A stretch of 64,000 nt of DNA from Octopus vulgaris (Eukaryota): assembly GCA_951406725.2 (NCBI GenBank), contig OX597815.1, forward strand, positions 151,900,001 to 151,964,000. Reading direction: 5' to 3'. Below the pieces are notes generated by a model. It was not told the origin of the DNA. It made no database searches and saw only the letters and a list, made by a program, of their open reading frames with translations. Both the position numbers and the translations under genes were made by a program. Below, piece after piece: positions 31,991 through 57,000 of this stretch. Within the stretch, counting starts at the first letter, position 1; every line of letters starts with the position of its first letter.

Positions 31991-32441
31991 TATTTTTACA
32001 TTTATATGCATACATACCAGATCAAATTTGAGCCTGGTGCAGCCTTCAGGCATGCCAGCCCTGTCAGACCTCAGCATCGAAAGCAGATATTAAACGACGA
32101 TGATGATGATGATGACAATGATGATGATTTTCTCATAGTGCTAGCACTTGTCAGGTTGTCTTGCATCTCATAATATTATACAATTCTCATTGCTCTCTGA
32201 TGTGGTTTTACAATCATGAAGACATTTTGAATAATTGAGAACTTTAAGTGATAACGGAAGAATAATGAGGATGCAGGGACTGAAAGTTACAAGAAAATGA
32301 GGATAAGAACAATGATGTGAAAGAGAGGTGGAGAATGACATGACCGAATGGTTGAAGCTAAGATAAATATTATTTGTGAGATGATTAATGATTTACTAAC
32401 ATCTTGAGAATCCAATAATCAAAGATAGTGTTACTTATTAG

Positions 32442-32528
32442 AACATCAATGCCAGCCCTCAGTCAATCCTGATGATGATAATGAAGAAGATGATGATAAT
32501 TATGATGAAATTGGTGATGTTGATAATA
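32442..32528 (+). CDS. Candidate acidic linker exon of the Death-domain gene, phase 1-1
   Basis: ttacttattag|AA ... A|gtgagt; 87 nt encoding HQCQPSVNPDDDNEEDDDNYDEIGDVDN. It is phase-compatible with the 41824 exon, and its downstream intron start resembles those of the DD exons. Confidence 0.5.
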
Positions 32529-33124
32529 GTGAGTATAAAACTGAAGTACCAAATTGATTTCTATAAGTTTTCCCTTGAGGACTGACATTGGTCAGTTCTT
32601 CTTGCGTTCCATAAAATTAGACAGTTGTTACTGCTTTTATGATGTTGTTTTTCCATTCAAGGTGATACATTGAGAAATATTGACAGAAGAATAATGAGGA
32701 TGCAGGGAGTGAAAGTTGTGAGAAAACAAGGATAAGAATGGTGATTTGAAAGAGAGGAGGAGAATGACAAGACTGAGTGACTGTCAGTTGTAAGCCTTCA
32801 GAGATGATTAATGATGTTATTAACATCTTGGGAAACTGATTATTAAAGTCAAAAGTACTTATAAGAACATCATTTTCAGCTTTCTAATCTAGGAGATTCA
32901 ATAACAAATCGCAAATGAAAATGTTTTCAACTGGTAAAAATTGTTAAAGATAATTTCATTTGTTTAAAAAATTGTCCTCCAGAAGTTCTTTTTGATTTAT
33001 CATTACATGAAGATGTCTGATTTTTCAGTTGACTGGTGTTTGATATGAGATATCATCTCTCACAGGTGTATCTTCCCAGGATGTCTCAAGTTAGAATATG
33101 TATTATAGTCTATACACACATATA

Positions 33125-34189: not shown

Positions 34190-34258
34190 CCACTGGCCTG
34201 AAATTGCTGGTTTTGTGCCAAAATTCGAAGCCAATATTACTGAAATCACAAAAAGTAT
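34190..34258 (-). CDS. Candidate upstream adhesion GPCR exon, phase 1-1
   Basis: aaactttgtag|AT ... G|gtaagt; 69 nt encoding TFCDFSNIGFEFWHKTSNFRPV, joining the 26260 exon in frame. Caveat: its acceptor region also resembles non-coding sequence at 44120-44180. Confidence 0.5.
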
Positions 34259-35370
34259 CTACAAAGTTTAGTACAGTTGGTAATATAGATAACTTAGAAT
34301 ACAATGAAGTTAATATTGACCAAAAAGGGAAATATGTTATTATGTTGGCGTAAACAGGTAAGTTAATAGCAATATTTCTGCTTCGTTTTACAGGTGAGTT
34401 AATGACAATATTTTTTTTTTTTTTAATCTTTACTAGGTTTACTGATAGTTTATTAATGTTGTTGTTCTGTAGCCAGATATCTTTCGTAATCTGGCAGACT
34501 TATGATAAAAAGTGTCCCAAGTGTGTCCATCCTGTCTTTTTTCACTTACTGTGAATCAGTAAATATATTAAACATATCTTAATATCAAAGTATCAAACTT
34601 TGGTTTGCTCCTAAGGTAAGCATTCTCTTTCTGTCTTCAAGATTAGATACAGGCTGCATAATGCAAAATAATAAATACAAAATAATAAATGATAGTGTCA
34701 TTAACATTCATCATCTGCTTCCATGCTCCCATTGATTAGATGCGTCATCAATGTCCAAGTCAGTTCTTATTCAGAATTAACATCCACTTTGACTGCTTGA
34801 GGTACAAACACATCTCACTTAAACACTCTGGATTTTAGATGACAAGATACCCTTCATAACACCAACCATTTTATAAACAATCTTGTGTATGTTTTATTGT
34901 AACACAAGCACTAATAAGATTGTCATCATCATCACCATTTAACGTCCATTGTCCATGCTGGCATGGGTTGGACAGTTTGACCAGAGCTGGCAAGCTGAGA
35001 GGCAGTACCAGACTCCAATGTCCACAATTAGATTGAAGGTTCCACTCAAAATTACGCTGCCTCCTCTCATTCACCAATCACTTACAAATGTGTACTGGGG
35101 CCATTTTCTCATAGTGCTAGCATGCTGTATCGTGGTCCAAACAAATTTTCAACTTCTTGCCTAATGTGATCCTGGAGCAATCTCTTAACTCTTACACTAT
35201 TTCAATATTACTTGTCAAAAGTGAAACAGTAAGATCTCTATTGTAATGTGTGTTAATACTTTCACTGTGATATATTTATGTATGTATATGTATGTATATA
35301 TATGCATATATATGTGTGCATTTATATATATATATGTATATATATATATGTATATATACATATATATATA

Positions 35371-38300
35371 CTTTGATACTTTGATAGGTTTCGGCCATTA
35401 TTAGCCCAGGCCATGTCTAACTTAATAGCACCACCTGGTGAAGTCTTTCAAGTCAGAATTTGGGCACTATGGCCCACTCAAGTAGAGAGTTATTGTTTAC
35501 AGAGACATATCCGGGTGTAGGGGGTTTATCCGGGATTTCTTGAAGGAATCTGTCCAAAGACTTCTTGAACCCTATAGGGTCAGTTTCTGTTTTAATGTGT
35601 TTTGGTGTAATGTTAAAGAGAGCGGGGCCAATTGAGGTGAAATAATTGTGCCGTATTGTTGTTATGAGATGAGAGTGCGATTTTTGTTTTGGGCGGATGG
35701 CACGGGGCCCAAGCCTTGGATATACCTTAAAGGTGATGCCAACATCATTTGGGCAATGCTGATGGAATATTTTCCACATCATGCAGATGATGTAGTGCTC
35801 ACGACGACGTTGGAGAGAATAGAGTTTTAGCTTTTCTAGTCGACCCCAATAGTCGAGGCCTGTCATGCCATCTATCTTTTTTGTGATTGCCCTTTGAGGT
35901 GCTTCAACTTTTATGATACCTTGTATTGTGTGGGGAGACCACAGTGGACAACAGTATTCAAGGTGGGGTCGGGCAAAAGTGGAGAAGAGAAGGATAATGG
36001 TGTGGATATCTCTCGACTGGAAAGTTCTGAGAATCCAGGAACACATTCTGCGGGCCATGTCAACTTTGGTGTTTATCAGCCTGTATCAGCCTGTATGAGT
36101 GGCCCAGCTTATGTTGTTGTCCACAATTACTCCCAAGTCTCTGATGTTGTTGGACGCCGCGAGAGTTTCACCTGAAGGAAGGGAGTATGGGAGTTTCAGG
36201 GCATCCTCTTTTCCAAAGTGGATTAGCTCAAATTTATCCTCGTTCAGCAGCATATTGTTTTTTTCTGCCCATTGGATAACAGCCAGTAGATCTGACTGAA
36301 GGCATGTCCGGTCACTCGCCTCATTTATGACCTTCTGTAGCTTGGAGTCATCTGCAAAGATTTTTATGTTGCTGTGCTTGATGATGTCATTAATGTCATT
36401 AATGTAAATGATGAAAAGAAGTGGGCCCAGCACAGTGCCTTGCGGAACGCCACTACTGACTTTGGCTGGGCTTGATTTTACCCCTTCAACTACAACATGT
36501 TGAGATCTGTCTGTCAGGAAACACTTGATCCATTTCAGTAACTTTCCAGAGACACCAATGTTGGATAGTTTTTTCAATAGGATCTTGTGATCGACCCTGT
36601 CGAAGGCCTTACTGAAATCAAGGTAGATGACATCGGTGTTGGAGCCCTCTCCCAAAGCTCTCAAAATGTCCTCAAAGTGATGCAGGAGCTGCGTTAGGCA
36701 GTCCCTTCCATTACGGAACCCATGTTTGTTGGAGATCAGCCATCTGTTGCTTTCCAGAAATTGGGTTATTCGAGATCTCACCACCCTCTCAAATACCTTG
36801 ATGATATGAGAGGTGAGTGAGATCGGACGGTAATTCACTGCAAGGGACTTGTTTCCCTTTTTGAAAACTGGGACAACAGACTGGGACAGAAGGTTTTTTG
36901 GAATATAGCCAGCATCCAGTGAGTTTCTCCACAGATTAGCAAGGGGAGATGCAAGTTGGTGTCGACACACCTTCAGGACACAAGCAGGGAACCTATCGGG
37001 GCCTACTGCTGAATTGTGTTTTATTTCGTTTATCGCCGCTAAGACATCAGGGGCACTAAACGTTATGTCCGATATAGTGTGTTGGGGGTTGACATCACTG
37101 ATACAGCCCAGATCGGCCATATCAGGATTGCTGAAAACAGAGCAGTATTGTTTCTGCAGTATCTCGGCCATGGATTTGGCATTATCTTGGAGAGTGCCAG
37201 TTTCGTCAATTAGAGGGCCTACAGTGGAGACAGTGACCCTGCGTTTCCTCGCAAATGAAAAGAACACTTTGGGGTTGAGTTTGATTTTTTCAATGGCCCA
37301 CTTCTCCTCAGCTGATCTTTGGTTATTGATGAGGGTCTTCATGCATTGTTGGAGGTTATATTTTTTGGATTCAAGCAGTGCGATAGCCGTCGAATGTGTG
37401 TGTTGCTGTTGGCAGTACTTTAGTTTGTTAATTTTTTTGTTTGTTCTTTTTATTTTTCTGATAATGGCTTTTCTGTTTTGGGGGATTCTGCACTTTTTGT
37501 TCACAGGTCTTGGTGGGGAGTGTTTTGCACATATGTCTGTGACGGTGTCTACAAAGATCTGCCAAGATGTTTTATGGTTGGTGGAGATGTGTGTATGTGT
37601 AAAGGACCAGTCAACATGTGATAGCTCGTTCCTGATTGCATCCCAGTTGGCATTATGGAGATCCATGTTGTCAAATGGGTGGGCTGGAGGAAGGTCACTA
37701 GGATTAGCTTTCGGCTGGTGGAATTTCATGTTACAGAGAACCATGTCATGGTCTGAAAGAAGGGTTTTTTCCACTGTAACGTTATGTATAGTGTTAGTGT
37801 GGTTACTAAACACTAGGTCCAAAATGTTCTGATGTCTTGTTGGTGCAAGGACAAGTTGGGACAAGAAAAACTCATTCGTAAAGTCGAAAAGTGACTCTGC
37901 TGCTTCTTTGTCAGCGGTTGAGGCGAGAGTGCTTGGTTTCAAACAGTTTGTAGTCCAGTCAACACAGGGTAGATTGAAGTCTCCCATCATGAGTATGTTG
38001 CTAGAATGGCACTGTTGAATAAAGCACTTAATGCTGTTGAGGCATTCTTTAAAGCACAGTATGGGTGTTTGGGGCGGCCTATAGAGCCCAATTACTGTCA
38101 GGTCATTGGCTTTGTTGTGCACGGTGACTGATTCACAGTAGCCGTTGGAGAATATACTATTTCCATCTGCCGTAAATGAATCATGCAGGAAAATGGCAGT
38201 TCCACCCTTCCTCCTGCCGATACGATCCGCGCGGATGGTTGTGAAATTCTTCACTCTCACTTCGGCTTCCAAGTGGGAGTTGTCAAGGTGGGTCTCAGTG

Positions 38301-39858
38301 AGAATGAAGAAAGGGATGTGGTGTGAATGGTTACCAACCCAGTCTTCAATGAATTGGACCTTCCATTTTTGTGCATTGATGGAAGGGCTGACACCTTGTG
38401 CATTGAGTAGGAATGTGGAGGTTAGTGTAGTGGCTGGTTTTGACTGTTGCAGGGGCTTGGATTTTTTGTGTGTGTTAGTGGCAGCAATGTGGGGAATTGG
38501 TGCACTGGGGTAATAGCATAGGATGGTGTTGAGTGATGGTTAGAATGTTTTTGTGTATCTCTTTTGCCATGTTCAACATGGCTAAAAAAGAATTTTCCTG
38601 CTTAGGGAGCAGTTTTTGGCTGGAGGTGTGGTTGCACTGTTGGATAGGGTTGTAGTTTCCACTTTTGTTGTTGTTGTTTTTGTGTCTTCCTGAAAAGACT
38701 GGACCAGCATTACTGCAGCATGGTGTGTTTCTATTTTTATTTTTATTCAGGTTTGTGTGTTGGCTTGAAGCCCCGTTTCTGTTTGTGCGTCAGGTCCCTG
38801 GAAGATGAGTGAAGGGACAGTCACTCAGCAGACATGTTCTCTCACGTTGGGAATACCGGCAGATTTTGGGACTCCGAGTTGTGTGTATTTTGAATTTTGA
38901 TTTACTATTTGGTGGTGTTGATGTTATTGTGGGATGCGTGCTTTGGCCTTGGCCGGTAGTGCGTCTAGTGCCGGGTAGATGCGTGAAGATGCAGTCACTA
39001 TTTGTGCAGAGTCTCTGGCGCAGTGAATAGCGGCATATTTGGGGATTTCTTGTTTGTGCCGTGGGGGGCGCATTCTGCTTCCTATGTTTCTTTAAGTTTT
39101 TGTTACTGCAGTAGTATTGAGGTGGTGATGTGGGGGAAGAGGGCAGTAGTTTCTTATTTGGTTTTCTGTTGGTATTTTTGGTGATAGAAGACGATGGTGG
39201 CAGCGGTGGTGATGATGATGATGATAATTGTGGTGGTTGCCGTGAGAGCGGTGAAAAGATACTGGCATTTAGTGAATCATCTAGTAAGCTAGAGTTGAGG
39301 AGTGGCTGTTGTTGTTCTTGTTGCTGTGGCTGTTGTTGTTGTTGTTGTGCTTGACCGATGTTAGGGTCAGCCATTGTGCTGGGAACCAGGAGTGGCTCAT
39401 TCTGTTGTTGTTGTTGTTGTGGCTGCTAATTTTCTAGCTGTTGCTGTTCTTGAACTGTGAAAATATGAAGAAGCTTTTCATAATGGCCTTTTGTCAGTTT
39501 GAAAGATACTTCAATATGTTTCAGCTTGCTTCGAATCTGTTTGACGGATCGTGTGTTGACCACTTGTGATGTTTTTTCGGCAATCTCATTCAAACACAAA
39601 ACATTTAGATTTTCTGTTTGGGAAAGAGAGAACCATGTGTTTATTAAAATATCAATTTCGTTATCAGAGCAATTTCGTCTGTTGCAGGCCTGCAAGTTAG
39701 TCATGTTTGTTTTTCTTTTGTTTGTTTTCCTTTTGATTTTTGAAAATATATATATATTCTTTCTTGGGAGTTAAAGAAGTGCATATATATATAAATGTTC
39801 TCTCTTAAGGGTGTGAGTTTTTGATTATTTGGTTGTTTGAGGATATTAAAAGAAAAAC
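35371..39858 (-). mobile_element. Near-full-length CR1-group LINE (ORF1 + APE/RT ORF2)
   Basis: ORF2 at about 38430-35453 has APE motifs (LTETHL, GLYRPP, GDFN, LDLV, SDH) and RT motifs (NYRPISL, LDFSKAFD, PQGTVLGP, FADD). It is broken by a 10-bp tandem duplication at 36074-36093. The 3' end carries 8-bp repeats (TATCAAAG)2, and the element sits in (TA)n. Confidence 0.93.
38790..39704 (-). pseudogene. LINE ORF1: Myb/SANT-like N-terminus, polyQ and two CCCH zinc fingers
   Basis: ORFs 39426-39704 and 38790-39374 are in the same frame, separated by one TAG in a CAG-rich run. Fingers: CRYSLRQRLCTNSDCIFTH and CRYSQRERTCLLSDCPFTH. Confidence 0.7.
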
Positions 39859-40779: not shown

Positions 40780-41150
40780 TTCCTTTTGATGTTGTTCTTA
40801 TATTAACAATAACATCACCAGATAGTTTCTGTCAATCAGACCCTGCTACACAGGTGTAAGTTCCAAGTCCTCAAATTTTCTGGTTACTTGGTTTCTACCC
40901 TATCAATGTCAACCACATTGATAAAGGAGATATCAAAGGGCAAGGTAACTTTGTTTGATGTATAGATGAGATTTAAATAGAGGTAACCTATATTCTTGAG
41001 AATCCGTTCTTTTGTACCATTCCAGGTACTTTCGTTGCAATATATGGATGATAGGTTATATGTAGTTTATGATGTTGAGTGCAAATGCACAGTATTTTAG
41101 GGCACATTACCACTGTCCATTTCACTTGCGTAGAACTAATCATTGCTCAC
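40780..41150 (-). pseudogene. Decayed Ig-like-domain pseudo-exon
   Basis: After tttcttttcag| it reads ...LEWYKRTDSQEYRLP...ED(L/fs)GTYTCVAG..KLSGDVIVNI, matching the Ig C-strand WY and F-strand D.G.Y.C motifs, but with several stops and frameshifts. Confidence 0.45.
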
Positions 41151-41307
41151 CTGAAAAGAAACTGTTTTTCTAAGGAGGATGAATGACAAGCAAATGTTTT
41201 CAAATATTTCAATAATCAGATGACATTCTGGCGAACTGTAATGTAGGTAGTTAAAATTTAAGATTACCAGTGGCAACCTTTAACAGAGAGAGAGAGAGAG
41301 AGAGAGT

Positions 41308-41343
<36 letters not shown>

Positions 41344-41823
41344 AGTTGTATGATGATCCTAATTGAAGTGGTGTGTCATGTGTTTGTGGCTAGATCTTAG
41401 ATGGCCAAGCCCTGGTTGGCATTGGAATTAAGCAGATGATGAGAAGAATATTGGTTAGTAAAGTCTAGACATCAGAGGACAACGGCATATCATAGATATG
41501 ACAGAAATATAATTAATGAAAGACAAATCTAAGTGATAAAAATCCTTAGCAAGTGGTAAATAAATGAGATAATTGCAACATTGTTAGATTAAGTAGGATG
41601 TCTTAATATAGAGAGGAGATTTAGGAAGTCTAGTTTGCTCTGTTGTGGACCTAGATATCAAGTTATTACATGGTACCACTGTAGAAAGTATAAAAATGTT
41701 GACTAAAATCACAGTGGTCACCAGTTGACCATTAATGATAGGAATATCTCACAACAATAAAATATATATTCTAATAGAGATATAGAAATTTAACTATAAA
41801 GTCTAAAACTTTAAATATTTCAG

Positions 41824-41895
41824 AGGATGTAAGACTCACCGATAAGGATCTCCTAAAGTTGGCTGAAAATTTAGCACAAATGTGGAATCATGTTG
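41824..41895 (+). CDS. Death-domain helix-1/2 exon, variant A (phase 1-1)
   Basis: atatttcag|AG ... G|gtaagt; 72 nt encoding DVRLTDKDLLKLAENLAQMWNHV, matching the DD start pattern LT..DL..LA..L...W...G. It joins 47863 in frame. Confidence 0.8.
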
Positions 41896-42906
41896 GTAAG
41901 TATAAAATAAAAATACTTGATTGTTTTCTATAAGTTTGCTAGAATATCAGTGAACTTGTTCCATTCCTAATTTCCAATTGAAAGATTAACTGTAATGTAA
42001 TTCTATAAGGGGTACTAATATTACTAAAATTCCAACCACGTTGAAAAAGGAGATATCAAAGGGGAATGTAACTTTGTTTGATGTATAGATGAGATTTAAA
42101 TAGAGGTAACCTATATTCTTGAGAATCAGTTCTTTTGAACCATTCCAGATACTTTCGTTGCAATATATGGATGATCGGTTATATGTAGTTTATGATGTTT
42201 ATTGCAAATGCTCAGTGTTTGAGGGCACATTACCACTGTCCATTTCACCTGTGTAGAACTAATCTTTGCTCACCTGAAAAGAAACTGCTTTATTAAGGAG
42301 GATGAATGACAAGTAAATGTTTTCAAATATTTCAAGAATCAGATGACATTCTGGTGGACTGTAATGTAGGTAGTTAAAATTCAAGATTACCAGTGGCAAC
42401 CTTTAACAGAGAGAGAGAGAGAGAGCAGGTGTATGATGATCCTAATTGAAGTGGTGTGACATGTGTTTGTGGCTAGATCTTAGATGGCCAAGTCCTGGTT
42501 GACATTGGAATTAAGCAGATGATGAGAAGAATATTGGTTAGTAAAGTCTAGACGTCAGAGGACAACAGCACATCATAGATATGACAGAAATATAATTAAT
42601 GAAAGACAAATCTAAGTGATAAAAATCCTTAGCAAGTGGTAAATAAATGAGATAATTGCAACATTGTTAGATTAAGTAGGATGTCTTAATATAGAGAGGA
42701 GATTTAGGAAGTCTAGTTTGCTCTGTTGTGGACCTAGATATCAAGTTATTACATGGTACCACTGTAGAAAGTATAAAAATGTTGAGTGAAATCACTGTGG
42801 TCACCAGTTGACCATTAATGATAGGAATATCTCACAACAATAAAATATAAATTCTAATAGAGATATAGAAATTTAACTTTAAAGTCTAAAACTTTAAATA
42901 TTTCAG

Positions 42907-42978
42907 AGGATGTAAGACTCACCAAGGAGAATCTCCAACAGTTGGTTGAAAGTTTAGCACAAAAGTGGAATCATGTTG
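42907..42978 (+). CDS. Death-domain helix-1/2 exon, variant B (phase 1-1)
   Basis: Same splice sites as variant A; encodes DVRLTKENLQQLVESLAQKWNHV. Confidence 0.75.
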
Positions 42979-43929
42979 GTAAGTATAAAATAAAAATACT
43001 TGATTGTTTTCTATAAGTTTGCTAGAATATCAGTGAACGTGTTCCATTCCAAATTTCCAATTGAAAGATTAACTGTAATGTAATTCTATAAAGGGTACTA
43101 ATATTACTAAAATTCCAACCACGTTGATAAAGGAGATATCAAAGGGGAATGTAATTTTGTTTGATGTATAGATGAGATTTAAATAGAGGTAACCTATATT
43201 CTTGAGAATCAGTTCTTTTGAACCATTCCAGATACTTTCGTTGCAATATATGGATGATCGGTTATATGTAGTTTATGATGTTTATTGCAAATGCTCAGTG
43301 TTTGAGGGCACATTACCACTGTCCATTTCACCTGTGTAGAACTAATCTTTGCTCACCTGAAAAGAAACTGCTTTATTAAGGAGGATGAATGACAAGCAAA
43401 TGTTTTCAAATATTTCAATAATCAGATGACATTCTGGCGAACTGTAATGTAGGTAGTTAAAATTAAAGATTACCAGTGGCAACCTTTAACAGAGAGAGAG
43501 AAAGAGAGAAAGAAAGAGAGAAAGAAAGAGAGAGATAGATAGAGAGAGAGAGAAGATTGGTTAGTAAAGTCTAGACGTCAGAGGACAACGGCATATTATA
43601 GATATGACAGAAATATAATTAATGAAAGACAAAACTAAGTGATAAAAATCCTTAGCAAGTGGTAAATAAATGAGATAATTGCAACATTGTTAGATTAAGT
43701 AGGATGTCTTAATATAGAGAGGAGATTTAGGAAGTCTAGTTTGCTCTGTTGTGGACCTAGATATCAAGTTATTACATGGTACCACTGTAGAAAGTATAAA
43801 AATGTTGAGTGAAATCACTGTGGTCACCAGTTGACCATTAATGATAGGAATATCTCACAACAATAAAATATAAATTCCAATAGAGATATAGAAATTTAAC
43901 TATAAAGTATAAAACTTTAAATATTTCAG

Positions 43930-43988
43930 AGAATCTAAACCTGAGCAAGCAGGATCTAAAGTTGGTTGAAAGTTTAGCACGTGTATAA
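43930..43988 (+). pseudogene. Death-domain exon variant C (donor deleted, runs into a stop)
   Basis: The acceptor is intact. It encodes NLNLSKQDLKLVESLARV*; the WNHV codons and the gtaag donor are missing. Confidence 0.6.
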
Positions 43989-45177
43989 AATAAGAATACT
44001 TAATTGGTTTCTATAAGTTTTACCTACAGTTGAACTTTTGTTTTCTAGAATGTCTGTGAACTGGTTCCATTCCTAATTTCCAGTTGAAAGATTAACTGTA
44101 ATGTAATTCTATAAAAGGTACTGATATTACTAAAATTTCATAAAATATCTACAGAGGTTAGCGTGGTTGGTAATACTGATAAATGAAACAACACAATACA
44201 GTTGGTATTGTCTTTTGGAATTGAGAACTGAAATACACCGTTGTGTTGGTGTAAGCAGGTGGATTAATAGTAATGTTTTTGTTTGTTTTACCTTTTTTTC
44301 TGAGTTTGTCGATAAGTTAGTGTTATTTAACCAGATGTCTATTGTCATCTGGCTGACATATGATAAAAAGTCTTCTAAGTGTGAAACCCCTGACTTGTTT
44401 GTGGGAGCATGTTATCAAATGTATCGTTTATAGCACGATAGGGTGTATTTTGAGTGAAATTTAGCTGCTATATCTCATAGCTAAAGTGATCACATGAAGG
44501 CTGCCTCACTGCCTCATCCTGCATTAGCCTATTGTATGGGCTGCTGGTTGGCAGTGATGGAACAACATATCTTCTACTGTCCAGTCTGTTGTTTTGTTGG
44601 TAACTAAAGTGGAGTTGGTCATGGTGGACATAGCCAGAAGATCATAGATATCTGTCTTTAGTATTTTCTTCTGTTAGTGTATATCCCAGGAATAAGTGGT
44701 GGTCAAGGTGGACATAGACAATAAAGCTATTGGTTTGGTGTGTAAATGTTACTTTCTGTTGTAGGAACATTCTGGGAAGTTATAGATGTGTCTGGGTGTG
44801 AAAGTGGTAGGTGTAATGTGTGTTGGATCTTCACACAAACAACAAACTGCATCCACTTTATATTCAACTGCTCTGTTATTTTCAGTACCGTTGTGCTTGT
44901 TGTAGTTGTATAGCCACAACACACAACCTCGATCAAGTAATATATTGTACACATGTAGCTAACCAAATGAGAACAGATGTAAATCACTGATCCATAGAAG
45001 CAGACACAGCATGTCTTCATCTTGTTGAAGTCCACACTTCCCTGACATTCGGTGATTAATTGTATGTGGCGAAATGTTGCTGTATCTGCCCTGTCCAGTC
45101 TGGTTCTCTGTATTTATTGTTGTTCTTTACTCCCAGATCAACTTGTAGTTTCTAGTGTTGATTATATTCATGGGTGT

Positions 45178-45548
45178 GGAGGTGCAATGGCCCAGTGGTT
45201 AGGGCAACAGTCGTAGGATCACGGGTTTGATTCCCAGACCAGGTGTTATGAGTGTTTATTGAGCGAAAACACTTAAAGCTCCACGAGGCTCTGGCAGGGG
45301 GTGGTGGTGACCCCTGCTGTACTCATTTCACCACAACTTTCTCTCATTGTTTCTTCCTGTTTCTCTTGTACCTGTATTTCAAAGGACCAGCCTTGTCACA
45401 CTGTGCCATGCTGAATCTCCCTGACAACTACATTAAGGGTACCTATGTCTGTGGAGTGCTCAGCCACATGCACGTTAATTTCACAAGCAGGCTGTTCCAT
45501 TGATGGCTTCAACTGGAACCCTTGTCATTATAACCGATGGAGTGCCAC
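45178..45548 (+). mobile_element. tRNA-derived SINE (second family)
   Basis: Head GGAGGTGCAATGGCCCAGTGGTTAGGGC...GGGTTTGATTCCCAGACC (A/B boxes) followed by a non-tRNA body. Confidence 0.65.
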
Positions 45549-45747
45549 GTATGTTCATGGGTGGATTCTATTCATTTAATGAAACACCAGTTATAAAATA
45601 ATTATCCTAACTGATGTAAACTCAACTTGATTTTCTTTCTTGGTTGAAATCATTTCACTCCCCTCTACATTAAAATGCAATCTAGAAAGGCATGAAGATC
45701 GCAATATAGCATTTCTCCTTGTCTGAAAGTATAATAGCATACAATAT

Positions 45748-46172
45748 TTATTTCTTTATTGCCCACAGGGTGCTAAACATAGAGGGGACAAACAAGGACA
45801 GACACTGGGATTAAGTCAATTACATCAACCTCAGTGCGTAACTGTTACTTATTTTATTGACCCTGAAAGGATGAAAGACAAAGTTGACCTTGGCACTATT
45901 TTAACTCAAAACATAATGGCAGATGAAATACCTATTTCTTTACTACCCACAAGGGGCTAAACACAGAGAGGACAAACCAAACAAGGACAGACAAATGGAT
46001 TAAGTTGATTATATCGACCCCAGTGCATAACTGTTACTTATTTAATTGACCCTGAAAGGATGAAAGGCAAAGTCGACCTCGGCGGAATTTGAACTCAGAA
46101 CGTAGCGGCAGACGAAATACCGCTAAGCATTTCACTTGGCGTGCTAATGATTCTGCTAGCTCACCACCTTTA
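45748..46172 (-). mobile_element. tRNA-derived SINE with duplicated body
   Basis: Homologous to 4385-4795. Confidence 0.75.
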
Positions 46173-47862
46173 CAGCATAAAATATTATTTATACAATGTT
46201 CCTATTATTTACATCAATATCTTGTACCTCCCTATTGTACCTATCTACATCTAGGTAGACTGCACTATAGAGAGTTGTATTTATCATGGACAGAGAGCAG
46301 TGCTGGGGCTAGATTTGAACTGTTGACCCTTGACACGGGGAATCAATACAGTATCCTCTCAATCAGCTTATATCAATGATTTATCGAAATTATGAGAGGG
46401 CATTATCTATGACATTGTCGACTTGTTATGCTTTTGAAATTGATACAGAATGTACCAGTCATATAATTATCATCATCGTCTTAATGTTCATTTTTCTATG
46501 TTTGTCAGTCTTAGACAACTACTCCAGCATAACTTTTGTGATTAACTTTTGCTATGCTTTTCCATCTCTTCCTCCATCGTTTTCTATTGGTTCTTTCCAC
46601 TTGGAACCTTTATCTTCCATATTCCTTCTATATCTGTACCATCTCTTTTGTGCACTGTCTCTGATTCTTCTGAGATCCACATTTTCTTCCAGCTCATCTT
46701 TGCTCCAGCATTCCTTCATACTAACATACTTCTAGTGAAGTATGCTTACCTTATTTCTTGTCAGTTTTTATACCTCCTCCGCATTCAATGCAACATTACA
46801 CTTTACAAATAAACATCATACAATCTACTCTTCATCTAGGCATGGAATCCCTTAGTTGCCAGTGAACATAATAGCTTTCAGTGCATTCTTCACTTAACTT
46901 TTTTTTCTGTAACTAAAATGTTACATACAAAGTGCTTTCTCTCTGTCAATCTACCTCTGATCCAACTATACCTCTAATGTATAATGGGTATACCATATCG
47001 AATTCCTATCCCCACCCCCACCCACCTTTCTTGCATGTCAAATATGATAACTCTCCAGATGATATAGATACTGATTGATGCAGTGATTCCTTCAGGACCT
47101 AACTGTTGTCGATGTAAGGTCCAGATGTTGGTGACTCCTGTCTTCTTTCCTGTTAACTAAAATTCTTTTCATTGCTTGGTTTTCTTTCAGACCTCTCCAT
47201 TATCAACTTCTCTATAAAACTGTGGCCTTGATCCAGAGCAAAATTTCCTATGAGTCATGAACCCTAGTTCATGTTTATAGCTAGTGTGTTTTATAATATA
47301 TGATGTCTATCTGACAATATTATATTTTGCATTTTGTGTAGCTGAGATTATTCTGGTATCATATTCGTATTTCATTGGTCCTGCTGCAGCCAATATTACT
47401 AGTATTGTTTGATAGTCTAATCCCTGCTGTCTACATGTTGATATGTTATAAATATTAAATAGCCAGAGAATGAGAGGCATTACATATGCCCTTTTCAGGA
47501 ATTGATCATGTAATGTTATCAGGTGATCTTCAATGTTAGGAGCAAATGGTGTAACTGTTAACGATCTATGTTGATTCTTTTGGCTCTGATACACTTTTGC
47601 TTAAACAAACACTTTTCCTTCCATTTGTTTACCAAAAATTTTCCCAAAAGTAATTTTCAATTTGTCTTTCATTTCTTCTCCATCTTCATCCTTTCTTTCA
47701 ACCGCTGATATTTTTATCAACATCTTTAAAAACTGAGAACAATGTCTTATACTGTTCATGTTTCTTAACAATGCTTATTTCTCTACTGATAAAGTTTCTT
47801 TATTATATTTATATTACTGCTAATGTTGTTGCAATTAGTTCTTGTTTTTGTGTCTTTTGCAG

Positions 47863-48068
47863 GTATCTCTCTGGGCATTGCTTCTGACACCCTAGCAAAT
47901 ATCGACAAGGATAATGGTAATAACGATATAATAAAGAGCTTTCAGATGCTAGAAACATGGCTTACGCGCTGCAATAGTAACACAAATACAATTAAAATAC
48001 TCAGAGAAACTCTTGAAAATGCTAACTGTTTGCTTGCACTTGAATATCTACCATCAGGCAAAAAGTAA
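47863..48068 (+). CDS. Terminal Death-domain exon (helices 2-6)
   Basis: tgtcttttgcag|GT...TAA; encodes GISLGIASDTLANIDKDNGNNDIIKSFQMLETWLTRCNSNTNTIKILRETLENANCLLALEYLPSGKK*, with the LG.....I, ML..W and T...L...L DD signature. An AATAAA lies at 48221. Confidence 0.85.
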
Positions 48069-48429
48069 ATTTCTGTGTAAATGCAGATGTTGTTTAGCCC
48101 CAGGCCAATCCTCACCAGACAGAAACCTATGATTTAATGCATTCCAGCCAGAATCGATTTTCACTGATCATTGCTCATTTTTTACATGAAAAAAAAAAAC
48201 TTTGTGAATGTATATTTCAAAATAAATCCATGGATTTAAAATTAAATAACCGTGTTGGAAAATTCTGTCACATAAAAATGATGATACAAGGCACTGGGGC
48301 AATATAATACTTTTTTCTTTTTTTCTGGAGTGGGCAGTACTGTTTGTCTAACACAATGAAAGAAAAGTTTTTCATGTGTGAGTGAATTTGGTAAATGGAA
48401 ATTGAAAGAAGCTCATCATACATATTTTC

Positions 48430-49439: not shown

Positions 49440-52400
49440 CAACATCATCATCATCATCGTTTAACGTCCGTTTTCCATGCTAGCATGGATTGGACAGTTT
49501 GACCGGGGTCTGGGAAGCCAGGAGGCTTCACCAGGCACCAGTCTGATCTGGCAGTGTTTCTACAGCTGGATGCCCTTCCTAACACCAACCACTCCATGAG
49601 TGTAGTGGGTAAGGCTGGCAGTGGTCATGATCGGTTGGTGCTTTTCACATGCCACCGGCACAGAAGCCAGTCAAGGTGACACTGGCATCGGCCACGTTCA
49701 GATGGTGCTTTTTACATGCCACTGGCACGGGTATCACAACTACAATTTCCATTTGATTTTTTAATTTGATGTTGATGTACTTGACTCAATAAGTCTCCTC
49801 AAGCACAGCAGGTCGCCCTATGATCCAAGCTAAGCACAGCAGGTCATTCTGCGATCCAAGGTACTTTGGATGGGCTGGGGCTGCTATATGAAACCGGTGC
49901 AGGAAACAGCCATGAATTCACGTTATTTGTTGGCTCTTCGCAGTCACAGCATATCTCCAGAGATCTTGGTCTTTCATCATTGCCTCTGTGTAGCCCAATG
50001 TCCGAAGGTCATGCTTGACCACCTCATCCCATGTCTTCCTGAGTCTACCTCTACCCCGGATTCCTTCAACTGTTTGGGAGTGGCACTTCTTCACACAGCT
50101 CTCCTCATCCATCCGTAGTAGATGACCATACCAGTACAAACGTCTCTCTTGCATGCCACATCTGATGTTTCTTATGTTCAGCTTTTCTCTCAAGGCACTT
50201 ATACTCTGTTGTGTGTGCACACTGACATTACACATCCAACGGATCATGCTAGCTTCATTTCTTTTGGCCCTAGACATGTCCTCCACAATCAAAGCCCATG
50301 TTTCACTGCCGTAAAGCATGGCAGTTTGCACAGATGCATTGTACAATCTACCTTGCACTCTGAGCAAGAGACCCTTTGTCATCAGTAGGGGTAGAAGCTT
50401 TCTAAACTTTGCCCAGGCTATTCTTATTCTAGTGGTAACACTCTCTGAGCATCTACCCCCACTAATAACTTGGTCACCTAGATAACGGAAACTAGCAACT
50501 ATTTCTAGTTTCTCCCCCTGGAGTGTGATGGAATCTGATTTCTGAGTATCTGTGGCGTCTATTGCCCCTGTGCATCTGCTGCACATGAGAGCTATCTTCT
50601 CGGTTATTTTTCCTTTAATGTTGCTGCACCTCTTATGCATCCATAGCTTACAGTGGGTACATTTTATGGAGTTTCTACCTACACCTTTTCTACAGATCAA
50701 GCAGGGCCACCTACCTGAAGGGTGGGGGTGATGAGTTCACCTTCCTACTTACTAAAACTTTGGTCTTTGCTAAATTGACTCTAAGGTTTTTTTGATTCTA
50801 AACCTAACTTCCACACCCGAAATTTCTTTTCTTGTTCCCATAGCAATTCTGCTCTGAGGGCCGGGTCATCAGCATAGAGGAGCTCCCAGGGGCAACCCAT
50901 CTCGAATTCCTCTGTTATTGCCTAGAGGACTATGATGAATAAAAGGGGACTGAGGGCTGAACCTTGGTAGACCCCTACTTCTACCCTGAATTCTTCACTA
51001 TACTCGTTGCCAATCCTAACCTTACTAACGGCCTCTCTGTATAGGGCCTGTTCAGCCCTTATTAACCATTCGTCTATCTCCAGTTTCTGCATGGCCCACC
51101 AGATAAGGGATCGGGGGACCCTGTCAAAGGCTTTCTCTAAGTCCACAAAAGCTAAGTAGAAGGGGTTTATCTTTAGCTAGGTATTTCTCCTGCAGTTGTT
51201 GAACCAGGAATATGGCATCAGTGGTGCTTCTACCCAGAACAAAACCGAACTGCATCTCATCTAAGCAGACTCTCTCCCTAATGAGATGGACTATGACCCT
51301 CTCTGTGACCTTCATCACCTGATCCAGCAGTTTAATACCCCTGTAGTTATTTCTATCAAGAGCATCACCTTTACCCTTCTAGCTTGACGTTGTAGATCTA
51401 GGAGATTTGGATCTCCCTCGAACCGAGCCACCCTCGCCCTCTCCACGAGTTCAAGAGTGTCGCCAGAGATCCAGTCCCTATGATGGCAGTGAATAGACCC
51501 GAGATGTTTTCAGGTCACCTCAACCGTTGCCTCCTTCAACACTCGCTACTCCTGCTCCGGCTGTTGTTCCACCACGTTACCAAGCAACTGGAATCGGTTC
51601 CGCAGCTCCAACAGGAAACCATTGCCAGCATCGAGTTTGAGTCGCAAGATGTCAATTCTCTTCTTGCGGTTAGGAGGAGGTTTTGTCTGCAGCCACAAAT
51701 GAAGGGTTGCCCGAACAAGAGTATGGTCTGACCCATGCTACCTGCTCGTATCAGCCCCACAATACGCACATGAGTCCACCACTGAGCTAGCCCAACGGGA
51801 CCTGACCAGTATGTAGTCAATCTGATTGGCTGTTCTACTGTCATTGGACCGAGCTAATCGAAATGCGCACTGGCATGCATTTGCTGAGCAGACAGAGAGA
51901 GCAGCTGCATATGGTGACTCACGGAAACTTTACCAACTGGTGAAGCAGGCCAGCCGAAGCAATCTGGGTGTCAGCGAGATGATTCATGATCGGAACGGCG
52001 TGGTCATTACCAACCTCAGTGACCGGGTGGGCCGATGGCGGGACTACTTCTCCAAGCTCCTCAATCACCTGCCTCCATCTACGACAACCGACACGCAGCC
52101 GCCTGGAGAAGAGTACAGGTGCAACACTGCCCCTCCAACGGTCGAGGAGGTGCGTGGTATCCTGAAAAATCTCCGGAACAACAAGGCCCCAGGTGAGGAC
52201 GGTGTCTCCCAGCTGAGATCTACAAGCCCGAGCCTGATGTCTTCGCAGCCTGGCTCCATCATGTCTTCTGTGCTGTGTGGGTGATGGAGCATTTTCCTGA
52301 TGACTGGAGTGAAGTAACTCTTTTACCTTTCTTCAAAAAAGGTGATAGAAAGCTGTGTTCTAACTATAGAGACATCAGCTCGAGAGATGTGGCTGCCAAA

Positions 52401-53822
52401 ACCTTTGCAATCCTTCTTCTGAAGAGGTTCCAGGCCATCCGTGATGTTCGTACTCGTCCTTCTCAGGGCGGCTTCCATCCAGGGAGAGGGTGCGTTGATC
52501 AAATCTTCAATCTCCGGCAAGTCCTGGAACAGTGGTGGACGCACCAACAACATACCGTTCTCTGCTTCATCGATTTTGCGGCCGCCTTCGACTTGGTGGA
52601 TCAGGAGGCCCTCTGGCGTATTATGCAGGCAGACGGTATCCCCGTGAAGCTGCTAAACCTCATACAGGGTTACTATCATTCAACGAGGGCTCGTGTGAGG
52701 GTCTATGGCAGAGAGACAGAGTTGTTTGATGTCACTACTGGTGTTCGGCAGGGTTGTGCGCTCTCACTAACCCTATTCAATTATGCCATTGATTACATTC
52801 TCAACACTGCACTTCGGGATTACCCAGTCATAGAGGCTGGGAGAGGAGTCGTGGTGATGGACCTGGCCTATGCAGATGACATTGCGCTCTTGGGCTCTAA
52901 CCGGGCAGATTTCCAAGATACTCTCGAAAGAGTGCATGCTGCGGCGGCAGCTGTTGGTCTTCGGATCAATGCTGGCAAAACTAAAGTGATGACGTCTCTG
53001 GTCGCAGCAGATGAATGGCGGCCAATCGTTCTTGAGGGCATGGAGCTGGAGGATGTGGAGTCCTTCGTCTACCTGGGTCCAACAGTGGTTCCAACGGACC
53101 AGGGCGCAGCCGAGGTCGAGCATCGCATAGATGTTGCCAGGTCTGCATTCGTGCGCCTCCAGCAGTGCCTGTGGGACAGAAGAGAGATCTTCTTGGTGAC
53201 CAAAGGGCGAATCTCGCGGGTTGTCATTCGTACTATCCTCCTCTATGGTTGTGAAACATGGCCTATAAGGGTCGCCGATTAGCAAAGGCTGGAGGTGTTC
53301 GACAATGACTGTCTCCGCTGCATTCTTCACTGCCGACGCATTGATCGGGTTCCTACAGCCGGTCTTCATCATCGCCTGAATCTCCGGCCCCTCCCTTTGG
53401 TGCTTTTACAATGGTACTTAAGGTGGTTCAGTCATGCGGCCCGGCGTCCAGAGGATGAGCTGATTCGCGATGTCCTCTTCCCAGCTGGCGCAAATGCACA
53501 GGCGGACAGTTGAAAACCTGGGCAACGATGATAAAGGAGGACCTCTCCGAATTATCAGGTCGGCAGGTGGTCGGTCTGCGCAGATGGAACCTTGTAGCAG
53601 TTGACTATGGTGCTGCTTCGCCAGTCATTGAGTATGACTCCATTATGAACTACCCGGTTTACAATGTGGGTGGCGAGGCCATAGCCTACACTACCAGAGG
53701 CTTTAAGCATCTCAACAGTGATTCCGGATGGGCCAGGGGCTTTTCCTGGCTTCATACCCTTAATTGCTTTATCTACTAGGGAGCTGTCTATTGGGATAGC
53801 TGGTCCCTCAACTGGGTCAACA
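49440..53822 (-). mobile_element. Decayed RTE LINE split by a nested insertion (segments 49440-51382 and 53590-53822)
   Basis: The RT pieces continue across the insertion: KAPGPSGI...TIVNCYK at 53590-53820 and GKGDALD/QFGF/DLEKAFD left of 51382. Confidence 0.85.
51383..53589 (+). mobile_element. GC-rich RTE of a second family, nested, with an inverted 5' segment
   Basis: The plus strand has RT motifs (NNKAPGEDG, SNYR.IS, IDFAAAFD, QGCALS, YADD, LRWFSHAARR). The minus strand at about 51385-51845 encodes the APE end (NQIDYILV...GSDHTLV). Confidence 0.85.
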
Positions 53823-54068: not shown

Positions 54069-57000
54069 TAATTCTTTATTACGATTATAAAATCAGTACA
54101 TAGAAGAACAATACAGGACATACATACAAAAAACAGTTAAGTGGTTCGTTTAAAAATTTCCACAATATATGGATTACTCATTATACAAAAAACTGTATTT
54201 AAATTGTCCTTTGCATTGACTAATATAACATTACATTAGATTGAAATCTTACCGATATATTTTAAACCCCGGCAACCTATAAGGCCCCGCAGCTTTCCTT
54301 TCCTCTTCTCCATCCTTAGTTAAACTGGGTTTCTGACACCCACCTTTTTCGCCACTTCCTTCCATCTATTTTCATACACACCTCGTGGTAAGGTCTTCTT
54401 TTCCAGCCCCATTTTGCTCTTCAGATGATATCTGAAGTAAGTGAGCAAGCCGGGGCCTGGGACAAAGGATCCTATTGCGACTCCATCCAGTCTTGTACGC
54501 CACATGCATTCTTTTACTACTGCAACCGTGCAGTGAAAACATGCCTCACCTTCCTTCGAGAGTCCAGTTGGCGGTATCATCTTAATCATAGACTCGGCCG
54601 ACAGCTGTACTCGTCCCAGATGCGATAACACGTGTTCTGCGTAACTTATCAAGTATGACAACTGCCGACAGTGTACAAAAGCGTGCTGGACGGTTTCATC
54701 GTCCAACCCGCATCTTGGAGATGTCGGTGGCACTGAAATTCCGTGCCGCGATAACTTCTTGCGAACAGGTAAGGCATTCCTATAACACTGCCAGGCCAGG
54801 GATCTTTGGAAATTATCCAAATACCCCGTCCTGAAAGTCTTTTTAAACAGGTTGGTAAGCTGGTCCTCGTCGAACCCCAGAGCCCCTCCTAGGACGTCGT
54901 CGTTCTTTGCCTCTACCAGCCTGCTATAAAATACCGAGGTGGTATTTCCGCAGCCGGCCTTGCCCGCCTTGTGGATCAGCGTGAGTGCCTGTTGGCACTC
55001 CTTTTGCCATAAAGTCAGATTCCGTCTTTTGATGCAACCGGGTTTAAAATTCACTAAGAAAGCCGGTCTCGGGAAAAATTCCCCTGCCAGCGGACTCCAC
55101 CCCTTATCACCCTCCAGGTGGTGCCAGAGATGCTTCAGCCTCAACGCATGTCTGCGCATCATCAACCAAGGCATTCCTAACCCACCCATTAACGGTTCCT
55201 GGCAGCAAACGGAGCGCTTCACAAGTGGCTTTCCTCCCTTCCACAAAAAGCGGAAAAGGATTCGCTACAACTTGCTAAGCCATGAATCGGGGAAAGGGAC
55301 AACGGTCAGGCGGTAAGTGATTACAGATGCAATAAACATCTGTACCACCTCCGCCCTTCCTTTCAAGGACAGAAACCTTCTGGACCAGGTCCGTACTATG
55401 GCCTCCACCTTGTCCGTCACCTCACTCCAATTCCTCTCCGTTTGAGAGTCTGGCCCAAACCAAACTCCTAGCAACTTAACAGGACCATCTGTCCAGTGTC
55501 CCACGGCACTGGACGATATCGACTTGCTCCTCCTGGTGCCGAGGCGTAAGCCAATCGACTTGTCCTTGTTAACTTTTGCTCCGAAATTCAGGGCCCAGTC
55601 CAGCCGCTTCGAGGACCGTCGCCAGGTACTTATGGTCTACCCTATCGAACGCTTTACTTTGGTCTAAATGGACCATTACCACGCCCTTGCCGGTTAATTT
55701 ACCCACCCTATCTAAGGTGTACCGTATAAGGTGAAGATTGTCCTGGATCGATCTGCCTGGAATTGCACATGTCTGTGCTTTCCCTACAAGTTTCTCCACG
55801 ACAGTCGTCAACCTTTTTGCCAACACCTTGGCCAAAATCTTTAACTCTACATTAAGTAGAGTTATGAGCCTGTAGTTACTAATGTTATCTCCCTTGCTCG
55901 GGTCTTTCTGGATTAGCGTCACCACTCCCCGGCTTACAGAACTGGGAATTCTCCCGTTCTGCTGCCAGTTCGCGTAGACGCCTGCCAGTATTCCCCCGAA
56001 CAAGTCTGGCATACTTTGATAAAACTCGTAGGGCAGACCATCCAACCCTGGCGACTTCTCCCCGGCGCACCTGGCCAGTACCCCCTCTATCTCCGCAGGA
56101 GTGATCGCTCCTTCACAGCACTCCACCTCACGCCCCGAGAGCCGCGGTCCGCCGGCTAGGAAGTCCTTTAAGGCCCTCCCCCACTCCAGCGAACCACCAC
56201 CCCCGAACGCGCGGGCGAAATGCTGGTGAAGAAACTTTTGCATCTCCTCCTGTCCATAGATCTTGTGTCCCTGTTCGTCAGTTAAGGACTTGATTGAAGC
56301 TTTGTTGCCTCTCTGACTCTCCACTCGACGGGCCCATCGGCAACGTTAATACCTTCTCGTTTCCCTGCGCGTAGCTTAGCTCTAACTCTGCAACCTTCGT
56401 GTTTGGAGTTAAGGTGACGGTACAATACCGTCCTTGCCGCCATCACTCCGGATGCAGAGCCAGATTCCATTGCCTCGTTTAGATTCTTAACTAAATCGTC
56501 CTCTATCCTAGACCTATCTAACCTTAGCTGATTGCTAAATCTAATGGACTCTGAACGAATGGCTTTTTTGAGGGAGTTCCACCATCTATTGTTAATGATG
56601 GTGCCACATAATGCCCTCTGTACTAACACCTTAATCCGGGTACGGAAGTCTTCACAATTCAAAATAGACTTGTTCAGCTTCCAGTACCCGGGTCCCTGTC
56701 TATGACACTTATCTAATTGCACCCTACAAGTCACAAATTTGTGATCCGTGTAAGGCACAATGTGAAACTGTGGACAACTAAACGAATCCTTATCTCTTTT
56801 CCTAACGAATATCCTATCTATATACGATCTGCGTGAGCCGTCGTTCTTACTCCACGTCCACTGTGGAACGCTCGGCTCATCCAGTCGATAACGGTCTACT
56901 AGATTAAAGCTCTCTAGTAGACCCTTGAGGCTAGGGTTCCCCTTCCTATTGGTTGAGCCAACACTATCGACCCGCGCTTCGAGGACAGTGTTAAAGTCCC

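Follow-up and report, generated by a model that had tools for sequence, protein, structure and literature searches.

The locus raises the question of whether a short exon repeated in tandem near the 3' end of an Octopus vulgaris gene is a Dscam-type array, in which alternative versions of part of a Death domain are chosen by splicing, or whether the copies vary in another way. The former was proposed in a preliminary description of the window (the whole stretch of 64,000 nt that was analysed), and this claim of an exon array is partly confirmed here. The variation looks like a gene-level one made by recombination and not like a Dscam-style switch between alternative exons. The Death-domain gene and its repeat units are laid out as follows, with positions counted in the window.

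32442-32528, plus strand: exon U, 87 nt, phase 1-1, acidic, with AG/GT flanks
40910-42032, plus strand: repeat unit A (intron, helix exon, intron)
41285-41342, strand not applicable: AG microsatellite of unit A, with counterparts at 42408-42425 (unit B) and 43491-43553 (unit C)
41824-41895, plus strand: exon A, 72 nt, intact, for Death-domain helix 1 and the beginning of helix 2
42033-43115, plus strand: repeat unit B, a chimera with a C-like distal intron and an A-like 3' flank
42907-42978, plus strand: exon B, 72 nt, intact, with the same peptide as the first helix exon of Octopus sinensis LOC115232413
43116-44137, plus strand: repeat unit C, without the 100-nt mid-intron segment found in A and B
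43930-43988, plus strand: decayed exon C, acceptor kept, Trp and donor deleted, reading to TAA
47863-48068, plus strand: coding part of terminal exon T, which supplies the remaining Death domain from helix 2 through helix 6 and the stop
48069-48246, plus strand: 3' UTR with AATAAA/ATTAAA signals near 48221 and 48241, into which contigs extend as far as 48163-48199

Either A or B joined to T is predicted to form a true Death domain. A profile made from the family alignment matched the RIPK1 Death domain in PDB at E=3.1e-12 over positions 2-85 of 92, the extent of its likeness to Death domains of the RIPK1/ankyrin/PIDD/Fas type (PF00531), and chains of ankyrin, PIDD, Fas, TRADD and TNFR1 were listed next. 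A Death-domain profile built from four relatives that pass Pfam's cutoff gave 95.6 bits for A+T, 94.2 bits for B+T and 69.2 bits for T alone, and in the tandem peptide it assigned the domain to the last helix exon plus T (97.3 bits), the first helix exon being a 7-bit extra. The earlier Death-domain call for the joined exons was thus correct, in view of the RIPK1 match (E=3e-12) and these profile scores. Among six non-spurious distant relatives, five reached E<0.001 when the whole protein was compared with Pfam Death, and four were above the curated cutoff. The preliminary description had also proposed a Pfam Death search and a structure prediction, and these gave a divided answer: the joined exons were recognised by the profile, but T, A and B each alone had no Pfam match (0/3), and the AlphaFold model of the two-exon stretch of the O. 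sinensis homologue showed six helices at low confidence (pLDDT 55.9, pTM 0.40), with which Foldseek found no match at E<=0.001. The homologue itself, at 14.5 bits, is below the 22.6 bits that the PF00531 cutoff requires. The ESM Atlas gave a lead only, namely three Death-domain clusters at 0.87. A search for relatives of T of 36-118 aa gave no candidate. From the separate search with T among 1.84 billion entries, the match P0011 was discarded as a low-complexity repeat protein.

Exons A and B are both 72 nt long, in phase 1-1, and AG/GT-flanked with the donor GTAAGT. They differ at 9 nt in eight codons, every one of which changes the amino acid (0 synonymous), and none of the changes touches six core positions (L4, L9, L12, L16, W20, V23), which were chosen from the RIPK1 alignment and the family consensus after the alignment was seen. 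The two intact copies probably differ in surface amino acids only. Several earlier statements were reproduced in this way: the 9/72 nt and eight amino-acid changes with the peptides as given, the retention of splice sites and hydrophobic core in A and B, and the constant end of the domain at 47863-48068, which is open to the stop. The low intron divergence that had been claimed holds locally, with 5/300 nt differing just upstream of the exon and 3/137 nt downstream, but not in the distal 375 nt of the intron, where 24 differences (6.4%) are found. Likewise, three tandem ~1.1-kb units are present as claimed, but the third copy is not a 72-nt exon. Deletions of 3 nt and 20 nt take out W-N-H-V and the GTAAG donor of exon C, TAA is reached at 43986, and the best alternative donor, a GT in frame at 43981, is weak. 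A private assembly error does not account for the deletions, because a contig of the public run X2 spans 43949-44170 without gaps.

The closest counterpart of the gene is O. sinensis LOC115232413 (XP_036369584.1 and its isoforms; uncharacterized), which has the acidic exon U, a helix exon identical to B and a terminal Death-domain exon in the same order. Exon U is 74% identical (E=3e-14) to the acidic exon that lies directly 5' of the helix exon in isoform X7, and it is the sole upstream exon of the gene detected within the window; the 5' repeat exons of LOC115232413 were not found there, the 5' part of the gene being absent near a 100-N gap. The terminal exon is 87% identical to T, and because 9/67 residues differ, LOC115232413 may be a paralogue. 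Both genes have tandem helix exons, but the second helix exon of O. sinensis (D) is intact and co-included, whereas the last copy of O. vulgaris is dead and there is one unit more. No counterpart of exon A was found in the nine O. sinensis models examined. The O. sinensis protein has no transmembrane stretch (maximum Kyte-Doolittle 0.97). Moreover, MIB2-like ankyrin/RING-Death-domain proteins of octopus (XP_029656683.1, XP_036356145.1, CAI9743466.1, CAI9744465.1; 35-48% identical to T) share the Death-domain subfamily and tandem short repeats in the linker 5' of the domain, though they have their own ankyrin and RING domains and no duplication of helix 1 was seen in those examined. Of 10 relatives scanned, 4 have a Death-domain match that begins at profile position 19-28 with helix 1 absent, which suggests that the helix-1 segment comes and goes as a module.

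Unit B is a recombinant between A and C, which the preliminary description had not noticed. Its distal intron differs from C at 7/375 sites and from A at 24/375, whereas its 3' flank differs from A at 3/137 and from C at 14/134. Informative sites are 18 of the B=C type versus 1 of the A=B type in the distal intron and 1 versus 12 in the 3' flank (Fisher 7e-7), and a max-chi permutation test on 44 intron sites gave p=0.0002. The unit ceases to be purely C-like at or near the AG microsatellite, and on the 3' side of the exon it is A-like; informative sites are mixed in the middle intron and in the exon (5:7 and 4:6), with several switches. The simplest view of A and B is thus that they are one exon in two forms, either alleles or paralogue versions. 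Two units are the ancestral condition, and the first of them is represented twice, by the versions A and B. Their tandem placement would come from unequal crossover or from merging of haplotypes in the assembly.

If the assembly had merged them, as in the mis-assembled haplotypes that the preliminary description named among its own refutations, the animal would be heterozygous for two-unit haplotypes A-C and B-C, between which the assembler switched at the microsatellite or in the homogenised 300 nt. A and B would then be alleles, one helix exon would enter each transcript because C is dead, alternative splicing would not be involved, and the exon-focused difference would be a balanced polymorphism. 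We consider this artefact possible but on balance unlikely. The flanks of unit B are allele-like, about 2% from their nearest counterparts on both sides (7/375 from C, 3/137 from A), and redundancy of the assembly is seen near its gap: at the edge of the gap, 1.1 kb of sequence occurs twice with 98.4% identity (30883-32017 vs 34220-35359), and there is a fold-back at 29564-30710. In addition, the O. sinensis models have two helix exons, not three, and no piece bridges the chimeric junction of unit B among the 32 contig pieces listed, most pieces being outside that list. On the other hand, an identical mosaic is expected from unequal crossover, the several switches in the middle intron and exon point to real past exchange between units, and tandem short repeats are frequent in proteins of this Death-domain family.

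With regard to splicing, constant exons in Dscam1-type arrays flank a tandem series of homologous exons that agree in length and phase. Exons A and B of the octopus are likewise tandem, homologous, 72 nt long and in phase 1-1, but C is not. Moreover, the octopus has two live variants where Dscam has many, and these have a recent chimeric origin. The intron between A and B is 1011 nt long, both introns are GT-AG, and the frame is preserved when A and B are co-included, so neither NMD nor steric hindrance forces a choice. All nine isoform models of the O. sinensis homologue, which are annotation models without X4, read the B-identical exon, the second helix exon and T together. The longest gapless docking/selector stems were 11-15 nt, within 20 Markov controls in 8/8 comparisons, in a scan of gapless stems in four flank segments with LINE and SINE stretches left out. 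With two usable copies only, in-frame co-inclusion, homologue models that all co-include and a null result for stems, the claim of a Dscam-like mutually exclusive array is not upheld. It is very improbable that a dedicated mechanism splices A or B onto T and gives two Death-domain specificities per allele. Such a mechanism would fit the intactness and identical splice sites of A and B, the nearly equal completion of the domain by either exon (95.6 vs 94.2 bits) and the structural oddity of a spare helix 1. Either-or use may in fact exist elsewhere in the gene, because two homologous acidic exons in the O. sinensis models never occur together (one type in 7/9, the other in 1/9, neither in 1/9). 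The models in which the helix exons are always co-included do, then, resolve alternative use of other exons. The flanks at ~2% speak of a recent juxtaposition, however, whereas human tandem-exon substitutions are mostly ancient and most tandem-duplicated exons become constitutive, according to an excerpt of PMC8373072. A literature search found no paper joining death domain, exon duplication and mutually exclusive exons.

As for public runs, the contigs of 4/4 runs examined, out of 24 listed and presumed to be RNA, start aligning at 47862 with 1-2 differences, which indicates that T is spliced. Fifteen joints listed (351 further ones exist) are SINE matches at 45.7-46.2 kb, and A>T, B>T and A>B are not among the joints listed. 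The SINE at this position lies between the helix-exon units and T. As a side observation, contig depth in the exon B bin is 2.43 in run X1 and 0 in X2, X6 and X8, whose animals may lack B; depth of this kind is not evidence. Similarly, the leftover depth of X6 in the exon A bin (686-756) fits a T-bearing contig on A (687), as expected if T followed A directly and B was left out, while X1 covers both bins, and this is not evidence either. The hint opposes strict co-inclusion and fits two units or alleles, though neither contig depth nor a stretch free of contigs can carry a conclusion.

The origin of the Death-domain gene appears to lie in the tail of the LRR adhesion GPCRs, a family expanded in octopus. 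T shares 48% identity with the Death domain of the O. bimaculoides LRR adhesion GPCR LOC106882527 (XP_052821851.1), with E=4e-7 among 1.84 billion entries, and the O. sinensis homologue matches the LOC106882527 tail at E=4e-22 without a low-complexity filter; the LOC106882527 Death-domain alignment crosses the boundary between helix exon and T. A member of this family is also the direct neighbour of the gene.

3790-26264, minus strand: five exons from the middle of the neighbouring LRR adhesion GPCR (26264-26148, 15144-14968, 11115-10882, 10566-10390, 3936-3790)

Taken one by one, these exons have 90-100% identity with O. sinensis LOC115224769 and 88-98% with a protein of O. vulgaris. An excerpt of Ritschard et al. 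(2019; PMC6408891) on the octopus group-3 LRR adhesion GPCRs reports LRRs in 5/22 sequences, one sequence with a Death domain, and positive selection on the group; the excerpt is silent on duplicated Death-domain exons. The likeness to this group is a repetitive tail ending in a Death domain. Among 28 further octopus adhesion-GPCR matches scanned, one had a Death-domain match, which was partial. No 7TM exon linked to the Death-domain exons was found in the window, where the GPCR exons lie on the opposite strand, and a flipped contig could make the Death-domain exons the tail of the minus-strand GPCR. This reading is less needed because the neighbour's O. sinensis orthologue, LOC115224769, has an end of its own, consisting of tandem repeats and a truncated T-like segment (59%).

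The divergence peak on the exon suggests, modestly, diversifying selection. Between A and B, the exon differs by 12.5% (9/72) and all intron by 3.9% (39/993; Fisher p=0.0035), and the contrast with the 300 nt upstream is sharper (9/72 vs 5/300, p=2e-4). The other two pairs of copies behave similarly (11/51 vs 7/300, p=3e-6; 9/51 vs 4/300, p=7e-6), though the three tests are not independent. Among A, B and D, 11 of 23 positions vary and none of these is at the six core positions (p=0.009; p=0.05 for A and B only). An excerpt of PMC3924837 describes a peak of divergence amid gene conversion as a mark of selection, and exon 5 of human red/green opsin there resembles our case in being a diverged exon beside homogenised intron; the octopus units differ in being exon-sized repeats inside one gene, homogenised only over ~300 nt upstream. 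The earlier suggestion of diversifying selection therefore stands as to an exon-centred, amino-acid-changing, core-sparing divergence, but the statistics are moderate and dN>dS alone is not significant (0 synonymous of 9 changes: p=0.145 unweighted, 0.078 transition-weighted).

In neutral birth and decay, one copy would be used while the others drift, and the peak would be an old divergence patch left by conversion tracts. We judge this quite improbable. It would agree with the dead exon C, with p=0.065 for the exon against the most diverged (distal) intron segment, and with a wholly intronic 72-nt window that has 8 differences against 9 in the exon. Moreover, when the differences are placed at random, 22% of the placements contain some 72-nt window with 9 of them, so what carries the signal is the coincidence of the peak with the exon, and the locus was chosen for showing a divergence pattern. 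At four of the exon sites that distinguish A from B, B agrees with C, and part of the peak may thus be old A/C divergence moved by conversion. Against neutral decay, the peak falls on the exon in all three pairs and begins at the acceptor, A and B are free of stops and splice-site changes, and the core is spared. The exon B protein is also identical to that of O. sinensis (0/23 changes) where T has 9/67, though this contrast is not significant (p=0.10).

Diversifying selection on the exon can be placed in a history of the locus. The gene whose 3' end lies here would be an octopus-specific Death-domain gene with kinship to the cytoplasmic tails of expanded LRR adhesion GPCRs, and these tails grow via tandem duplication of short repeats. 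The helix-1 exon was duplicated once, and A-type and C-type units are now 5-10% apart in unconverted intron. The second unit died in O. vulgaris (C) and stayed alive in O. sinensis as exon D, which is probably homologous. An unequal crossover near the AG microsatellite between A-C and B-C chromosomes may have produced A-B-C, the chimera itself being seen in unit B, and would have made alleles or paralogue versions of the first-unit exon adjacent. In the transcript, the last intact helix exon spliced before T would complete the Death domain with no enforced either-or, and the upstream copy would either be retained as a spare helix, which is the arrangement of the O. sinensis models, or be left out in the manner of an ordinary cassette exon. 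In the Death-domain superfamily, helix 1 contributes to interfaces of types I and III. Its surface may be under diversifying or balancing selection, to be held with moderate confidence, and the preference for binding partners would vary by haplotype or paralogue through exon birth and death in the DNA. The shared core of this account (a true Death domain, two old units, a chimeric B, a dead C and the GPCR-tail family) is highly probable, while the whole, with A-B-C as a real haplotype, has somewhat less than an even chance.

Going further, octopuses may have a small and rapidly evolving family of soluble Death-domain adaptors or decoys that split from adhesion-GPCR tails, with the helix-1 surface swapped by exon duplication, recombination and death, and the divergent versions (A, B, D and at least three versions of T) held across species by balancing selection. 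This is speculative and distinctly unlikely. If it were true, three-unit haplotypes could choose between two specificities by splicing, and a Death-domain signalling module would carry a polymorphism driven by allorecognition or by pathogens, inside a single domain. As a splicing system the locus is ordinary, and its three-copy form may fail long-read checking. If the selection signal holds, it would represent an octopus-specific Death-domain signalling module with a diversifying interaction surface, and the unexplained Death domain of the octopus adhesion-GPCR expansion would be tied to a testable role in immunity or self-recognition. The difference between A, B and D lies in one 23-residue helix, and these versions should be exchangeable in binding assays.

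Exons A (41824-41895) and B (42907-42978), joined to the terminal exon T (47863-48068), encode a Death domain (DD), as had been proposed, and the tandem exon duplication is real. With T, A or B each alone, the Pfam search matched no family. Searching with T gave an O. sinensis homologue, represented by 4 clusters out of 62 candidates, together with six more remote proteins from octopus (35-48% identity), four of which passed the Pfam Death cutoff (one extra match was removed as a repeat protein). The joined exons fit a profile built from four of the six relatives, with bit scores of 95.6 for A+T, 94.2 for B+T and 69.2 for T alone. The profile of a nine-row family alignment matched best the RIPK1 DD (E=3.1e-12), followed by ankyrin, PIDD, Fas, TRADD and TNFR1 chains. 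In this alignment the short helix exon corresponds to helix 1 and the beginning of helix 2, with helices numbered as usual for the DD fold. According to the family profile, the DD of a peptide with two helix exons is completed by the last one, the first being extra. Structure prediction was of low confidence (pLDDT 56), and Foldseek on the model gave no match.

A and B are both phase 1-1 exons of 72 nt with the same splice sites, differing at 9 nt across 8 codons with no synonymous change, and three direct repeats of ~1.1 kb surround the helix exons in the window (units A, B and C: 40910-42032, 42033-43115 and 43116-44137). The third helix exon turned out to be a decayed copy (exon C, from 43930), in which deletions of 3 nt and 20 nt have eliminated both the conserved Trp and the GTAAG donor, so that the reading frame meets TAA. 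This decay is real and shared, because a contig of X2, one of four public sequencing runs, spans 43949-44170 gap-free and differs there by five substitutions. The low A-B intron divergence holds for the segments originally chosen (5/300 upstream, 3/137 downstream) but not elsewhere, the distal intron having 24/375; one 72-nt window inside the A-B intron carries 8 differences. One stretch of the homogenised intron segment upstream of the helix exons (41546-41731) has a ~83% match to an abundant contig in all four runs and is probably a dispersed repeat.

Unit B is a chimera of a C-like left part and an A-like right part, because informative sites favour C in the distal intron (18 B=C versus 1 A=B) and A in the 3' flank (1 versus 12; Fisher p=7e-7, permutation p=0.0002 for the contrast). 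Its divergence is ~2%, from C on the left and from A on the right, while A and C, the old pair of units, differ by 5.3% in the distal intron and 9.7% in the 3' flank. A 100-nt segment after the AG microsatellite is present in B and absent from C. The simplest history would start from two ancestral units; B would be unit 1 in another version, added by a join at or near the AG microsatellite. This history fits the O. sinensis models, in which a B-identical exon, a different intact exon (D) and T follow in order. Unequal crossover between an A-C and a B-C chromosome would yield the mosaic A-B-C. The same mosaic would arise if the assembler had merged two haplotypes, A and B being alleles. This draft assembly has a 100-N gap at 30783-30882; the 1.1-kb segment at its right edge is duplicated at 98.4% (30883-32017 and 34220-35359), and to its left, at 29564-30710, lies a fold-back of 97% identity accompanied by a direct repeat of 98%, the fold-back and the duplicate being probable assembly redundancy. 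We consider such merging possible but rather unlikely, and give a nearly even chance to a genuine haplotype of three units whose exons are co-included or used as cassettes. The array is best read as DNA-level variation through duplication, recombination and decay.

The diversifying selection proposed in the preliminary description has moderate support from the exon divergence peak and the sparing of the core; an excess of amino-acid change is not significant (0 synonymous among 9 exon changes, p=0.08-0.15). A-B divergence is 12.5% in the exon versus 3.9% in all intron (p=0.0035), or p=0.065 against the most diverged intron segment, and a window with 9 differences arises somewhere in 22% of random placements. 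Divergence jumps at the acceptor in all three copy pairs, and the 11 positions that vary between A, B and D leave six core residues untouched (p=0.009, with core positions picked after alignment). An exon peak next to homogenised intron is described in PMC3924837 as a mark of selection under gene conversion. B equals C at 4 exon sites, so conversion accounts for part of the A-B gap; a neutral mosaic seems improbable, and the signal of surface diversification is moderate. The net charge of the helix exons is nearly unchanged (-1, 0, -2), a point against selection. In filaments of the DD superfamily, helix 1 contributes to contacts of types I and III, as shown for PYD and CARD (PMC7830601), and by analogy helix 1 of the octopus DD may do so. 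T, regarded earlier as constant, varies across the family, 9 of 67 residues differing from O. sinensis. Over 47863-48199, runs X1 and X8 contain a second T version with Asp-to-Arg near 47925, and a contig lying more 3' differs at 11 positions over 140 nt. Contigs of X2 and X8 match the intron at 40.3-40.8 kb and 42.1-42.4 kb with ~8-10% divergence. There is thus either a close paralogue or a haplotype that has diverged strongly.

Mutually exclusive use of A and B is very doubtful, since both helix exons of the homologue are present in all nine O. sinensis isoform proteins examined (isoforms X1-3 and X5-10) and no exclusion-enforcing feature was found in the window: exon length is divisible by three, the intron is 1011 nt, the sites are GT-AG, and gapless stems of docking/selector type were not above controls in 8/8 comparisons. 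Tandem-duplicated exons mostly turn constitutive, according to PMC8373072. Contigs of all four runs, presumed to be RNA, match T and the UTR with 1-2 differences. Their alignment breaks off precisely at the acceptor, beyond which 2, 33, 33 and 129 letters remain, a sign of splicing. Run X6 hints at A joined to T without B, counter to strict co-inclusion, but from contig depth sums, which cannot carry such an inference. The O. sinensis models do differ from one another outside the helix exons. A better either-or candidate in O. sinensis LOC115232413 is a pair of homologous acidic exons, never together in the same nine models (P0002-P0010; one in 7, the other in 1, neither in 1). In the literature searched, we found no description of duplicated or mutually exclusive DD exons; the general pattern is already known.

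LOC115232413, the nearest protein, has a repeat-rich N-terminus followed by the acidic exon, the helix exons and T, with no transmembrane stretch. Its acidic exon has a counterpart in the window (exon U, 32442-32528), where none of its more 5' repeats was found. The DD shares 48% identity with the one in an LRR adhesion GPCR of O. bimaculoides, and a gene of this type is the neighbour:

3790-26264, minus strand, five exons from the middle of an LRR adhesion GPCR orthologous to O. sinensis LOC115224769

These exons are 90-100% identical to the O. sinensis protein and 88-98% to the O. vulgaris protein; the first ~790 residues had no coding match in the window. In both genes, then, the 5' end is missing on the side facing the gap, and the DD gene may be either a soluble derivative made of the tail alone or the last part of a receptor with its front lost in the gap. 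An octopus-specific expansion of LRR adhesion GPCRs, with a DD in one member and positive selection in the group, is described by Ritschard et al. (PMC6408891). Gain and loss of short modules before the DD is a habit of the family, because octopus MIB2-like proteins have tandem linker repeats before the same DD type, the C-terminal end of LOC115224769 has eleven 12-residue repeat copies and a truncated T-like segment, and the helix-1 part is absent in 4 of 10 DD relatives scanned. The models of four octopus relatives (P0012, P0016, P0022 and P0023) keep only the terminal-exon part, P0012 with two such halves.

Other features of the window, with mobile elements called from translations by eye and without a family scan, are:

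1967-2725, tandem repeat with a 42-bp unit in 18 copies and long ORFs on either strand
35453-38539 (minus), 17735-20818 (plus), 5601-7275 (minus), 52197-53282 (plus) and 54320-58880 (minus), LINE-type reverse-transcriptase ORFs, a Helitron-like helicase remnant and a DNA-transposon remnant

One LINE-type ORF has inserted downstream of exon U, ahead of unit A. An old duplicate of exon U's intron and acceptor (32160-32456) lies at 32601-32880 (71% identical); in it a U-like start meets a stop, which makes it a second decayed tandem exon copy in the DD gene.
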